Shown here piece after piece: positions 14,211-18,293 of a DNA stretch of 18,293 nucleotides (position 1 is its first letter; each line of letters opens with the position of its first letter). The DNA comes from a virus. A program made the translations under genes and the position numbers. The stretch lies in the UHGV virus genome UHGV-0114973, one strand, 5' to 3'. The notes under the pieces are model-generated. The model was not told where the DNA came from. It did no database searches and saw only the letters and a list, made by a program, of their open reading frames with translations.

Positions 14211-14739
14211 GACGATTCATTCCCTCTAACATGTCCCAGATAAGCGCAACACGGCGCGGATCCGTGCTGATAGTGTGTAAAGTTTCACACCCGTAATGCC
14301 ATCCCCAGCGAACGGATAGTTCTGACAACAGGTAACCACGGGAATTAGCCAGCTCAGCCAGTTCACCGGGTTTAAATGTCGTTGTATTAGGTTCTGTAAG
14401 AACACGAGTACCACAGATAGCGTCACTGATGCGCCACGGTTTCATCAGGTCATCAACCTTATACCAGTTACTGATACTGATTTCAGACGTTCCCCAGCGT
14501 GCAGCCAGTTTCAGACGTTCCTGACGGGCCGGGAACATTGGCATCTGTGGTAAACGCAGTTGGATCTGTTCTGCAGGTTCAAACATGTCGTCGTCTGTTA
14601 AACGAAATTCACCACGGTCATCAATATAAAAACCACGGGAACGACCATCACGGGTGAACCCGTCAACACGGTTGTAAATTTTACCGGGAGTAAAGACACC
14701 AATCGGTGAACCAGCTACAAATTTGTGTGAAGTATGCAT
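14203..14739 (-). CDS. hypothetical protein (178 aa)
   Basis: ATG at 14739-14737 with GAGG 8 nt upstream, 39 bp downstream of the PolB stop. Coding-quality ORF translationally coupled to the next gene. No family recognised by eye. Confidence 0.5.
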   Translation of the reverse strand: MHTSHKFVAGSPIGVFTPGKIYNRVDGFTRDGRSRGFYIDDRGEFRLTDDDMFEPAEQIQLRLPQMPMFPARQERLKLAARWGTSEISISNWYKVDDLMKPWRISDAICGTRVLTEPNTTTFKPGELAELANSRGYLLSELSVRWGWHYGCETLHTISTDPRRVALIWDMLEGMNRHD

Positions 14740-14778
14740 TGTTATCGCCTCAATAAGTTTTAAATAATTCTATACGGT

Positions 14779-16635
14779 TTACCGAAGTGGTGCAACGAGT
14801 TTTTCAGCTTCTTTGATGTAAAAATCATAATTGAGCGTTGCCCGGTTAAAACGTTTCATGTCGTTACATTCCGTGGTCAACCAACCTTTGCACACGGACA
14901 TACGGCGCTCAGGCGCGTCAGGGTTCAGTTTCAGTGATTTTGCCAGCGGTGGCATGACTTTTGTCAAAGGTGCACCATCTGTACTGACGTAATAACGGGT
15001 AATGTTCTGAACCTGTTTATCACCCCATAGTAATTTGCTGTTACGTGGTACTTTCGTCACTAACATGAAATCGTGAATATCTTCGTGTGATGTTATAAAA
15101 TCACGAATGTCTTTATTGTGTACCAGTGCTGCTTCAGCCGCTTTTGCGACAACCTGCATACTGTGGTTTTGATGCCAACCCAGATCAACGCTGTGACAAT
15201 AAGCGCCTTTACGTTTAACTTTCTTACCGCCTTCGTAAACAGCGATGTAATTATTTACATCGCGGATAAACATCACGTCATAAATTGCTTCTTCAAGCTG
15301 GAGTCTGGTTAATTTTTCCCACGCGTGACGAACCTGTTCTACTTGTCCGGTAAACACTCGTGGCACGTAAACCGTAAGACCATCTGTGTTAGCCTGGATC
15401 ATGGACAAACCAGGGATTTTCAGAAGTTCTTCAGCCAACATACACAAAAGTAACTGTCCGTTAATCGTAATAGCCATTGTGTAAGCAGGATCGTAGAATG
15501 GACTGTATACGTTATTACTGTCACCATACACACCGTTTAACGCCAGTTTTAACATTGCATTTTCTGGTGTACCTTTCGGGTAACTGGAACGCATGTCGTA
15601 AACATTTTTATAAATGGTGCAAAATTGTTTTCCCAGATGTGCCGGATAAAGTTCATTACTGATCGCAAGGTTCGGATAAAAACTGGCAACGTCCAGATCG
15701 ATGATCACATAATTTTCAGTGGACCTGATAGTTTGAGACTCAATAGACCCGTGGATACCACCCGTACCAAAATCAAACGAGAACCCGTTAATGTCTGCGC
15801 TTAAATCTGTGAATACACCTTTTGTTTCAGTGATAACCTGTTGACGTAACCAGTTAAGAACACGATTAAATTCAGGCTGTTCAAAACGGACATAAGGGAA
15901 AATCACACTGTTCAATGCGATTGATGGTCTGTGCGTCTGTCGTGGTTTTCTGCTACCCGGTTCGAAACATTGAATACCTGATTTTTCAAGTTCCATGATG
16001 AAATATTCTTTACCGATTTTCGTGTCGTTATGGTTCATGAAATTACGACCGTATTTAGCAGAAAGTTCACGACGAAAATCTATCAGCTTTTTACTGTGTT
16101 TATAAAACATCAAAGTCGCTTTCAAATCGTGCATCAGATATTGACGAAGCGTATCAATTTGAGAATCGGTTAAATAAGTCCCTGGCGTAAACGGAAGGTC
16201 TTCAATGTTTTCCATTCTCATATTGAATTCAAGTGTTTTCAGACTTGTTCGTTTTGCCTGATTGTCGAAATGATGAATTTTATACAAATCAAGCTGGGGA
16301 ACTATCCAGTCTTTTTCCCACACCATATGAGCAAAACGATTTTCATCACCAGCGTTAATTATTGAATCACCTTTTTTATAAATGTCTGCGTTGGTGATAT
16401 ACATGATGTTGTTCAAAATAGAATGCTGAACAGGATAGTCGTAACCCAGATTGTTATAACCAATTTCTTCAGCACGATGTTCACGCAAATATTCTGTGAA
16501 CAGGTAAAAAGCCTGACGATCATCGCGACGATGTGAAATCTCAAAAATATAAGGCGTTTCGGTTAACGCGTGAATAGCACCGAACAGAAAAACATTAGGA
16601 TAGTTTTCAATATCGTGAACGTAAGCATCTGACAT
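14779..16635 (-). CDS. compact family-B DNA polymerase with a 3'-5' exonuclease domain
   Basis: 618 aa. Exo I D8-I-E10; Exo II N62-L-G-Y-D66; Exo III Y166-L-M-H-D170 (spacing close to phi29 DNA polymerase); motif A D315-V-A-S-F-Y-P (Dx2SLYP-type); motif B K363-L-A-L-N-G-V-Y-G (Kx3NSxYG-type); motif C N416-T-D418 (an NTD variant of DTD). Motifs are only 48 and 55 aa apart and no TPR-like insertions are evident. Confidence 0.7.
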   Translation of the reverse strand: MSDAYVHDIENYPNVFLFGAIHALTETPYIFEISHRRDDRQAFYLFTEYLREHRAEEIGYNNLGYDYPVQHSILNNIMYITNADIYKKGDSIINAGDENRFAHMVWEKDWIVPQLDLYKIHHFDNQAKRTSLKTLEFNMRMENIEDLPFTPGTYLTDSQIDTLRQYLMHDLKATLMFYKHSKKLIDFRRELSAKYGRNFMNHNDTKIGKEYFIMELEKSGIQCFEPGSRKPRQTHRPSIALNSVIFPYVRFEQPEFNRVLNWLRQQVITETKGVFTDLSADINGFSFDFGTGGIHGSIESQTIRSTENYVIIDLDVASFYPNLAISNELYPAHLGKQFCTIYKNVYDMRSSYPKGTPENAMLKLALNGVYGDSNNVYSPFYDPAYTMAITINGQLLLCMLAEELLKIPGLSMIQANTDGLTVYVPRVFTGQVEQVRHAWEKLTRLQLEEAIYDVMFIRDVNNYIAVYEGGKKVKRKGAYCHSVDLGWHQNHSMQVVAKAAEAALVHNKDIRDFITSHEDIHDFMLVTKVPRNSKLLWGDKQVQNITRYYVSTDGAPLTKVMPPLAKSLKLNPDAPERRMSVCKGWLTTECNDMKRFNRATLNYDFYIKEAEKLVAPLR

Positions 16636-16656
16636 AATAAAACCCTGATAAGTAAA

Positions 16657-16674
16657 TGGGGCACTATGGCCCCA
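16657..16674 (-). other. hairpin between the 273-aa gene and the PolB gene
   Basis: TGGGGC, loop ACTATG, GCCCCA. On the minus strand it is followed by TTTACTTATCAGGGTTTTATT directly before the PolB ATG. May act as an attenuator or processing site. Confidence 0.3.
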
Positions 16675-16715
16675 TGTCTGTTTAAAGCGGTATATCGTCC
16701 CAGTTCCAGTAACTA

Positions 16716-17537
16716 TCAGTAACCGTTACCGTTGAGAAAATTCGGGGCCGGGGTGGTCATTACCATATAACCATTAGCAATCAGTTGTTCATCGTTCCAA
16801 CCTTGCGCAATAAACTGTTCGTAAGTTGCACCACCTGCTTTTTCAGTCATTACTTTTACAGGTGCTGCCGCTGGTGTAGGCGCTGCTACAGGTGCTGCCG
16901 CTGGTGTAGGCGCTGCTACAGGTGCTGCCGCTGGTGTTACGCCGATCGGACGTGCACCTTCAGGCATTGCAGGAGCAGCGCCAAACACAGAGGCAGGAGC
17001 CGGACCGGAAATGATTTCTTCACCCGCATAAAGCAATTGCGCCATTTCCATGTTGATATACACACCAGCCTGGTTACCTGTACGACCGTTTGCAACAGAT
17101 GATCCGCTGATACGGTAGTAATAACCTTTTTTCGCCAGATTTTTATCAATAACTGGCTGGTACGCTGCGTTATAAACCGGACACGCGTCAATAGCCACGT
17201 TGCGTGAGAAACCAATTACCCAGTGACCAGCATAACCAGTTTTACTCGCATGTTTCGGATCATCACCGTTAATAATTTTCCATGCGAAAGTAGGTTGTTG
17301 TGGTTCGCCGTTCACATAGTGTGAGTTCGCCGCTCGCATAATCGCCTGGAATACCGCACCCAGTTCACCTTGTTCTTCCCACCAGTTCGCCGCTGTTTTA
17401 GGAAACGCCAGACCAACCCACCAGTTGTGTTTTTCAGGTGCTAACGGTTTATTTTCGTGGTCATGAGTGTTGATATCGAAAAAAGAACCGCCAACCAGAC
17501 GACCAACCGGAGTTACAAAAGATTCTTTCTGTGCCAT
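16716..17537 (-). CDS. replication-associated protein with a PA-rich repeat linker; possibly an ssDNA-binding protein
   Basis: 273 aa with AGAAGG ribosome-binding site 8 nt upstream. The N-terminus MAQKESFVTPVG loosely resembles the start of T7 gp2.5-type SSBs, which is weak evidence. Three tandem PAAAPVAAPT units form a linker before a short C-terminal domain. Sits directly upstream of PolB in the same operon. Confidence 0.45.
   Translation of the reverse strand: MAQKESFVTPVGRLVGGSFFDINTHDHENKPLAPEKHNWWVGLAFPKTAANWWEEQGELGAVFQAIMRAANSHYVNGEPQQPTFAWKIINGDDPKHASKTGYAGHWVIGFSRNVAIDACPVYNAAYQPVIDKNLAKKGYYYRISGSSVANGRTGNQAGVYINMEMAQLLYAGEEIISGPAPASVFGAAPAMPEGARPIGVTPAAAPVAAPTPAAAPVAAPTPAAAPVKVMTEKAGGATYEQFIAQGWNDEQLIANGYMVMTTPAPNFLNGNGY
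16861..16937. repeat. 30-bp tandem repeat, about 2.6 copies
   Basis: GGTGCTGCCGCTGGTGTAGGCGCTGCTACA occurs at 16861-16890 and 16891-16920, with a partial third copy at 16921-16937. It lies inside the 273-aa gene and encodes the PAAAPVAAPT repeats. Confidence 0.9.
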
Positions 17538-17552
17538 GTTATTAACCTTCTT

Positions 17553-18293
17553 TTAAAGTGGACGTGCGCCAGTCGGCATCGTCACGGGTTTATTAAAAAC
17601 AGATTCTGCCAGTGTGCTGTGACCTTTACGCGGGTCACTGTCAGGTACTAAAACTGGCTGACCTTCTGGTTTTGTCGTACACATGTCAACAAGTGCCGGA
17701 GGCAGTGATTTTTCCAGTGTTGACAATGGTTTTAATTTACGTTCGTACAATGTTTCAGGGTTTACACCAAACATTGGTGCAGCACCGATCAGTTTTCCTT
17801 CGTCCGTAAGCTGACGTCGGGTTTGTTTTGTTGCAAGTTTAAAACCCGGTAAAGCCTTACCCATGCGAACAAAATGTAATCCCTGAGTATGTAACGCTGT
17901 TTTTGCTTCAGAAGAACGCGTATACAGTTCTTCAAGAAGTGCCAGACGACGCGCTACTTCTTCTGGCGTAAGTGATGGTGGTGCGTCAAGAACAGTAGCC
18001 AATTCTAAAACCCTCTCATACATTGCCGGACACATACCACGCGCCGGACAGTAATGACAATGACTACCAACATTTAACGGTGCGTCTGGTTTATGTGCTT
18101 CGTTAAACCCGTGTTTAAATCGTTCAGCCCATTCCATCAATGTTGCCCGGTTAAACTCCCATCGTCTTACAGGTCCGAGTGGGTGATAAGCCCGTGGCTG
18201 AACAATTGTGAACACAACGCGCTTAACGGTGTCGATGCAACGTTGGTCCAGTGCATAATAGACCCCCTGTGAGTTATCAACTGCTTCAACTGC
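17553..18293 (-). CDS. Cas4/RecB-like PD-(D/E)XK nuclease candidate, partial (N-terminus beyond the window)
   Basis: The minus-strand frame stays open to the window edge. Contains the cluster C-H-Y-C-P-A-R-G-M-C (C-x2-C-x5-C), as in Fe-S-bearing RecB-family nucleases, followed by a C-terminal extension of about 150 aa. The nuclease core motifs would lie upstream and were not seen. Confidence 0.45.
   Translation of the reverse strand, partial: AVEAVDNSQGVYYALDQRCIDTVKRVVFTIVQPRAYHPLGPVRRWEFNRATLMEWAERFKHGFNEAHKPDAPLNVGSHCHYCPARGMCPAMYERVLELATVLDAPPSLTPEEVARRLALLEELYTRSSEAKTALHTQGLHFVRMGKALPGFKLATKQTRRQLTDEGKLIGAAPMFGVNPETLYERKLKPLSTLEKSLPPALVDMCTTKPEGQPVLVPDSDPRKGHSTLAESVFNKPVTMPTGARPL

Follow-up and report, generated by a model that had tools for sequence, protein, structure and literature searches.

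A Sashavirus gene between an exonuclease and a DNA polymerase gene encodes a predicted T7-type ssDNA-binding protein with a non-acidic, modular C-terminal tail

The window analysed here, 18,293 nt of UHGV virus genome UHGV-0114973, is a segment of a Sashavirus (9NA-like siphovirus), and over bases 14700-18293 it shares 97.9% identity with Salmonella phage Solent. It contains a gene for a 273-aa protein which is the predicted replicative SSB (protein binding single-stranded DNA, ssDNA) of this phage and, judged from sequence comparison and a structure model, most likely an ssDNA-annealing protein as well. The gene is the middle member of a conserved cassette, preceded by a DUF2800 exonuclease gene and followed by a DNA polymerase gene. 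A summary is shown in Table 1.

A preliminary description of the stretch had listed the reading frame without its strand. The frame is real and located on the minus strand, from an ATG to a C-terminus that reads ...TTPAPNFLNGNGY*. The plus strand of the same interval is full of stops, which rules it out. Since Solent encodes a 100% identical protein (AXY86242.1) and homologs number in the hundreds, the gene can be regarded as genuine. Its start is well supported owing to the AAGAAGG motif 8 nt away and the distance of only 15 nt to the stop codon of the upstream exonuclease gene. A ribosome-binding site is also annotated at the matching place in phages Sasha and Solent. The identity of the protein, previously left unresolved, follows from PHROG 7011 ('Gp2.5-like ssDNA binding protein and ssDNA annealing protein'), which matches residues 2-260 with E=9e-94, and from RefSeq, where the Sasha ortholog already bears this very name. 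The GenBank label of the Solent protein is 'hypothetical'.

The fold of the N-terminal domain was predicted using AlphaFold2 based on an alignment of 71 homologs (mean predicted local distance difference test score, pLDDT, 87.6). Residues 1-187 reach a pLDDT >93 and form an OB fold with a long helix at residues 57-73. The best nine Foldseek matches in the PDB are exclusively T7-type SSBs (E=2e-8 to 2e-6, probability 1.00), namely the DUF2815 structures 4jg2 and 4klk, T7 gp2.5 (1je5) and Enc34 ORF6 with and without ssDNA (5odj/k/l). All further matches have E>0.05, about five orders of magnitude worse, and classical SSBs appear only there. A loose resemblance of the N-terminus to T7 gp2.5-type SSBs had been noted before; it is borne out by Foldseek, AlphaFold2 and PHROG 7011 alike, and the OB fold, whose absence would have counted against the early proposal, is there in the model. 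The same SSB fold excludes a clamp-like processivity factor, another role considered earlier. A single-sequence PDB search finds 4jg2 at just E=0.16 and a profile is needed, the family profile reaching the same structure at E=1e-11. Pfam PF10991 (Enc34_ssDNA-bd, formerly DUF2815) is matched marginally with 26.5 bits against a cutoff of 26, and NCBIfam yields zero matches for the SSB, the polymerase or the exonuclease fragment.

The profile alignment to 4jg2 places Tyr140 and Ser144 of the SSB on Tyr136 and Ser140 of the B. cereus protein. In characterised members a base-stacking aromatic residue is located at the start of strand beta4 (Trp150 in Enc34, Tyr158 in T7), and a polar residue at the DNA kink follows four positions on (Asn154 in Enc34, Asn161 in T7; PMC5686142). 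Tyr140 is thus the counterpart of the stacking aromatic and Ser144 that of the kink residue; both are conserved. A classical bacterial-type SSB with an acidic DDDIPF tip was considered as well and is ruled out by the missing Pfam SSB match for the 273-aa protein, the Foldseek values of E>0.05 and the uncharged C-terminal tip. Based on this analysis, the core of the protein is very probably a T7-type SSB, and a probable annealase, of a replication and recombination module.

Table 1. Features at the SSB locus (positions refer to the window)
Feature	Position	Strand	Basis and details
DUF2800 PD-(D/E)XK exonuclease, 3' part	17553..18293	minus	Pfam DUF2800; cut by window end; 381 aa in Solent
Ribosome-binding site AAGAAGG	17546..17552	minus	8 nt before SSB ATG, read directly from sequence
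SSB coding sequence, 273 aa + stop	16716..17537	minus	Open reading frame list, translation; predicted T7-type SSB / ssDNA-annealing protein
Predicted OB-fold ssDNA-binding domain, T7 gp2.5 / Enc34 ORF6 type, residues 1-187	16977..17537	minus	AlphaFold2, Foldseek, profile
Pro/Ala-rich disordered linker, residues 188-224	16866..16976	minus	pLDDT <50 at residues 201-222
Variable-number tandem repeat	16857..16937	.	30 bp x 2.7 copies, 100% identity, Tandem Repeats Finder (TRF) score 162; encodes PAAAPVAAPT units
Beta-alpha-alpha-beta mini-domain, residues 225-262, VKVMTEKAGGATYEQFIAQGWNDEQLIANGYMVM	16752..16865	minus	
C-terminal tip, residues 263-273, TTPAPNFLNGNGY	16719..16751	minus	Short hydrophobic motif, aromatic end; disordered in models
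GC-rich hairpin, 7-bp stem, 6-nt loop, then TTTACTTAT	16656..16675	minus	Pattern scan, fold
Family B DNA polymerase, 618 aa	14779..16635	minus	PHROG 1252 E=2e-215; PDB profile; motifs A, B, C

To our knowledge, the C-terminus of bacterial and phage SSBs is described in reviews and structural papers as universally acidic. Elsewhere among T7-type SSBs, the acidic tail contacts partner proteins and occludes the protein's own DNA cleft. Such a tail is absent here, as already seen in the preliminary description: the last 30 residues hold 2 D/E, and residues 188-273 have a net charge of -2. Enc34 ORF6, in comparison, has 16 D/E among its last 29 residues, and all four solved T7-type SSBs are acidic-tailed (PMC5686142). 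The membership in the T7-type domain family is not affected, because the acidic stretch is a feature of the tail and not of the domain that defines PF10991.

Instead, the tail consists of three parts, a Pro/Ala-rich linker, a mini-domain and a short tip. The linker contains a tandem repeat (PAAAPVAAPT PAAAPVAAPT PAAAPV in translation) that is far beyond chance; this repeat and the NFLNGNGY ending are exactly as first described. In close relatives the linker measures 29, 32, 33, 35, 36, 41 (the 273-aa SSB), 52, 63, 65, 73 or 99 aa, the copy number of the repeat differs, and different lineages expanded different units, arguing for a genuine variable-number tract. The annotated repeat region of Sasha comprises 171 bp. 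The mini-domain of ~35 aa has a pLDDT of about 93 in the full-length model as well as in isolation, and its Trp250 is invariant. Its consensus is MTxKAxGATYEQxIAxGWTDxxLxxxGxM, usually accompanied by the motif P-x-(N/D)-F-L-x-(G/P). Hence the repeat linker and the small, separately folded C-terminal module proposed at the outset are both present, and they are conserved. The mini-domain has neither a Pfam or PDB match nor a structural homolog. For the isolated tail, Pfam returned a sub-threshold 'Decapeptide' hit alone (14.8 bits against a cutoff of 45), an assignment we dropped after a literature search that gave nothing relevant.

Tip variants in relatives are PAPNFLxGNGY, PAPNFAQGGGY, PNPAFLAGP, PAPDFLNPP and PAYPAILNPP, located before or after the mini-domain. 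The tip motif forms the extreme C-terminus in phage 7-7-1, there without a mini-domain, and in a Vibrio phage. An intramolecular binding of the tip to the mini-domain is not supported by the models, the tip being of low confidence in both. Neither the window nor the whole Solent genome contains a second mini-domain or tip motif. A non-acidic modular SSB tail of this kind was not found described in the searchable literature; the tail is new, while the protein family itself is known and already annotated.

Short-read assemblies break at the perfect 30-bp repeat. It contains the ends of three IMG/VR contigs (L003, L006, L007), the contigs of FSL SP-062 and SP069 (KC139634/KC139632) are split at it, and the Klebsiella phage records ON602746 and OP617744 seem to have their start or end there or close by. 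These 'genome ends' are likely artefacts.

The exonuclease matches Pfam DUF2800 with E=7e-30 for the fragment in the window and 9e-58 for the full Solent protein. Of 80 related IMG/VR loci, all 75 with enough flank have this gene upstream of the SSB gene and in the same orientation; the other 5 end less than 600 bp upstream. A duf2800-gp2.5-polA module has been described for phages of Firmicutes and of Gram-negative hosts (PMC8093625). In the window the place of polA is taken by the gene of a PolB, the type of neighbour that had been proposed before. A single-sequence PDB search with this polymerase gives weak matches only. A profile built from it and 28 homologs finds exclusively PolB structures, first 1s5j (Sulfolobus PolB1, E=7e-10), followed by archaeal PolBs, Pol alpha and E. 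coli Pol II, and motifs A, B and C align. The 618-aa enzyme has no Pfam or NCBIfam match at all, although profile and motifs assign it to family B. It belongs to a divergent, compact PolB clade. Within a module that is otherwise conserved, either this PolB type or PolA occupies the position.

The position upstream of a family B polymerase is the one point in favour of a terminal protein, covalently attached to the genome ends and priming replication, which had been listed as an option. The fold is that of a T7-type SSB, however, and genes for TerS, TerL, a primase and an SF2 helicase are present in Solent. For phage 9NA the sequence assembles into a circle and a pac fragment is seen, which indicates pac-site headful packaging (PMC4153490). 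Moreover the polymerase profile matches primer-dependent PolBs, with phi29-type enzymes absent from its list of PDB matches. We regard a terminal protein as practically out of the question. The Solent primase (L086 67-2421, outside the window) carries an NrS-1 polymerase helix-bundle domain (HBD) together with D5_N and DUF5906 domains, which points to an initiator of the primase-polymerase type in this group of phages.

The SSB gene lies directly upstream of the polymerase gene, as stated in the preliminary description. The co-transcription claimed along with it needs qualification, since the gap of 80-83 nt contains a hairpin that is annotated as a terminator in Sasha. A counterpart in the Agrobacterium phage 7-7-1 is annotated likewise. 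Hairpins of unrelated sequence, many with canonical T-runs, are found directly 3' of the SSB stop in widely divergent loci (L008, L009, L011, L021, L030, L050, L053, L065, L072, L075 and L076), so the hairpin is conserved in position. It is probably a weak terminator or attenuator, and its positional conservation suggests an attenuation that sets the ratio of SSB to polymerase. The tight coupling of the SSB gene is to the upstream exonuclease gene rather than to the polymerase gene.

To evaluate the tail with respect to the polymerase type we compared 68 distinct complete SSBs, 34 of them with a PolA (Pfam DNA_pol_A) as neighbour and 31 with the PolB type. Of the former, 28/34 have the mini-domain and 25/34 the tip motif; of the latter, 28/31 and 19/31, respectively. 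This bears on the idea that the C-terminal module is aimed specifically at the adjacent PolB as a tether or processivity aid. The gene order would fit, and the tail of T7 gp2.5 does bind T7 polymerase (PMC5686142). Yet the mini-domain is about as frequent next to PolA, unrelated SSB families carry it as well where no polymerase is encoded nearby, and the N-terminal fold is that of an SSB, not of a clamp or a thioredoxin-like factor. Of the earlier proposal, an interaction module stays as the best reading of the tail; a direction towards PolB is highly improbable.

An exhaustive profile search with the mini-domain returned 1,114 representatives (clusters at 50% identity), nearly all of them carrying it at the C-terminal end of SSB-sized proteins. 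The N-terminal domains to which it is fused are those of DUF2815, phrog_112, DUF669 and phrog_862/27714, and a protein may have 1 to 4 copies. An exclusive occurrence on DUF2815 SSBs, considered initially, is overturned by this search. Solent and Sasha have one carrier each with one copy. A phage-encoded partner common to all carriers was not found: none of polymerase type, DUF2800, Sak4 and primase is constant. SF2 helicases are met repeatedly but belong to different subfamilies with weak or no mutual matches, and none is named as partner here.

Several carriers have tips that resemble bacterial SSB: those of the L013 and L058 SSBs and of P0138, P0142, P0146 and P0187 include ...KDDIPY, ...PVEIPF, ...DDLPF, ...GDIPF and ...GDLPF. 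Carriers of the DUF669 type end in ...PPWAR or ...PPWL. This suggests interchangeable terminal docking peptides combined with the mini-domain. In a sister genus, 9NA gp29 (L094, NC_025443.1, 12381-13187; 268 aa) is a second carrier that is not an SSB and is absent from Solent. Its mini-domain is internal (residues 96-124, E=3e-12) and followed by DUF6378, a part with the putative PHROG label 'phosphofructokinase'. L092 (3365-5182) and L093 (9067-11050) exhibit adjacent gene pairs with mini-domains in both genes. Each pair combines a Cys-rich phrog_27714-type protein with a protein of 2-3 copies that has a W-rich '...KGIFKKRRG' motif and no family assignment.

One small element recurs on different proteins of the same process, a pattern that resembles SSB tips and clamp-binding motifs. 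This points to a module for docking or assembly on a linker of fast-evolving length. Tentatively, we propose that the mini-domain together with P-x-(N/D)-F-L-x-(G/P) on a Pro/Ala tether could represent an undescribed mobile docking cassette of phage replisomes. It would replace or supplement the acidic tip in at least three unrelated ssDNA-binding families and mark other replication-associated proteins (9NA gp29 with DUF6378; P0167-like) for the same hub or for each other.

A possible but doubtful alternative is self-association. Homotypic contacts of tethered copies would then give cooperative SSB filaments or condensates at forks and co-recruit other carriers. The 1 to 4 copies per protein, the two carriers in one locus or genome (L092, L093, 9NA gp29) and the missing single phage-encoded partner across contexts are all consistent with it, and tails of T7-type SSBs mediate protein-protein contacts in crystals (PMC5686142). 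In Solent and Sasha, however, there is one single-copy carrier, and multivalency would require SSB molecules arrayed on DNA.

Another view takes the protein primarily as a recombination annealase working with the DUF2800 exonuclease, like Red-beta with lambda Exo, where the mini-domain would bind the exonuclease and load the annealase onto resected DNA. The invariable gene order (75/75), the 15-nt gap in the window and the in vivo annealing by gp2.5-family proteins (PMC2896510) agree with it, and the C-terminal domain of lambda Red-beta is reported to bind Exo (PMC6393309). We consider this unlikely nonetheless. Loci that lack DUF2800 also encode the mini-domain, on DUF669 and further SSB-like proteins, for example next to Sak4 or beside ResIII/DnaB-like genes or PolA. 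9NA gp29, which is no SSB, is another carrier. A pairing with DUF2800 is general among DUF2815 proteins, of which the characterised ones are acidic-tailed (PMC8093625). A replicative role is still required, since no second SSB is annotated in Solent.

In the preferred picture, the SSB would coat lagging-strand and resected ssDNA. Together with the 5'-3' PD-(D/E)XK exonuclease it would promote single-strand annealing, which may feed the formation of the concatemers needed by headful packaging. The hairpin after the SSB stop would lower read-through into the polymerase gene, providing stoichiometric amounts of SSB but catalytic amounts of polymerase. The acidic tail is replaced by a flexible Pro/Ala tether of rapidly variable length, the folded mini-domain and a hydrophobic, aromatic-ended tip. 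Mini-domain and tip would act as a tethered docking cassette without specificity for the polymerase, by which the SSB is linked to a shared hub or to further proteins with this module. The docking role is drawn from the distribution of the mini-domain only.

Several points speak against this picture. The PF10991 score exceeds its cutoff by just 0.5 bit, an equivalent of Enc34 Lys46 could not be fixed in the SSB, and within the family annealing activity is demonstrated for the T7 and phi12 members only. As to the proposed docking role, the mini-domain has no structural homolog, and its conserved residues (W, Y, G and a T/S-D helix cap) appear to be of structural importance, without outlining an obvious binding surface. 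As for the hairpin, its T-tail is poor, and the stability of the whole intergenic gap does not exceed that of shuffled sequence (z=-0.56), for which reason a partial termination is proposed only modestly.

Among known systems Enc34 ORF6 (5odj/5odk/5odl; PF10991) is closest. It shares the Pfam family, the T7-type OB fold (Foldseek E about 1e-7) and the location in a phage replication module, and an aromatic stacking residue and a polar kink residue are present in both proteins (Trp150/Asn154 there, Tyr140/Ser144 here). Sequence identity is only about 14%, and the unstructured acidic tail of Enc34 ORF6 stands in contrast to the repeat linker, folded mini-domain and hydrophobic tip with a net charge of -2 in our SSB. 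For Enc34, loss of the tail alters the discrimination between ssDNA and dsDNA. T7 gp2.5 (1je5) likewise combines an OB fold with an extra long helix, and a dual role in ssDNA binding and annealing would be expected here. Both proteins end in an aromatic residue (Phe in T7, Tyr here), and neither genome has a separate ssb gene. The T7 tail, however, is acidic, mimics DNA and binds gp5 and gp4, whereas the tail described here is neither acidic nor polymerase-specific. Moreover the polymerase of T7 is of family A and its exonuclease is gp6, in place of PolB and the DUF2800 PD-(D/E)XK nuclease.

The design as such resembles E. coli SSB (linker plus ...DDDIPF), with an OB core followed by a Pro-rich tether, low in complexity and variable in length, and by an aromatic-ended docking element at the terminus. 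Some carriers of the mini-domain still end in ...DDLPF, ...GDIPF or ...DDIPY. OB subtype and oligomeric state differ from E. coli SSB, the tip is uncharged in our case and a folded domain is inserted in the tether. Lambda Red-beta/Exo is similar in that the exonuclease and annealase genes are adjacent and tightly coupled and the annealase carries a small domain at its C-terminus, attached through a flexible linker. Red-beta is Rad52-like with a helical-bundle C-terminal domain, though, in contrast to the OB fold here, and the mini-domain also occurs where no such exonuclease is encoded. Finally, a subset of the DUF669 or N4-type phage SSBs has the same linker and mini-domain tail (P0204: PF05037, E=3e-16). 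Their N-terminal domain is unrelated or highly diverged, and they are partnered with Sak4 in place of DUF2800. SSBs of the DUF669 type are typically described as acidic-tailed (PMC4889955).

For annotation these data allow the SSB and its 'hypothetical' orthologs in Solent, Klebsiella and 9NA phages to be named gp2.5-like SSB/annealase. More than 1,100 clusters (50% identity) use a folded mini-domain on a Pro/Ala tether instead of an acidic C-terminus, and this mini-domain has spread across unrelated SSB families and also to proteins that are no SSBs. The identification of its partner would show how widespread phage replication modules hold together and help to interpret how SSB-sensing defence systems see such phages. 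If the proposal is true, the mobile docking cassette would represent a new, widespread SSB-centred interaction network with a tether length tuned by a fast-evolving tandem repeat.

Other GenBank labels of the Solent region (L002 43718-45624) look outdated. The DUF2800 exonuclease is listed as 'hypothetical', and a 253-aa gene upstream of it, which has no Pfam match, as 'putative TonB receptor protein'. A homolog of the latter is found in 25/80 related loci.

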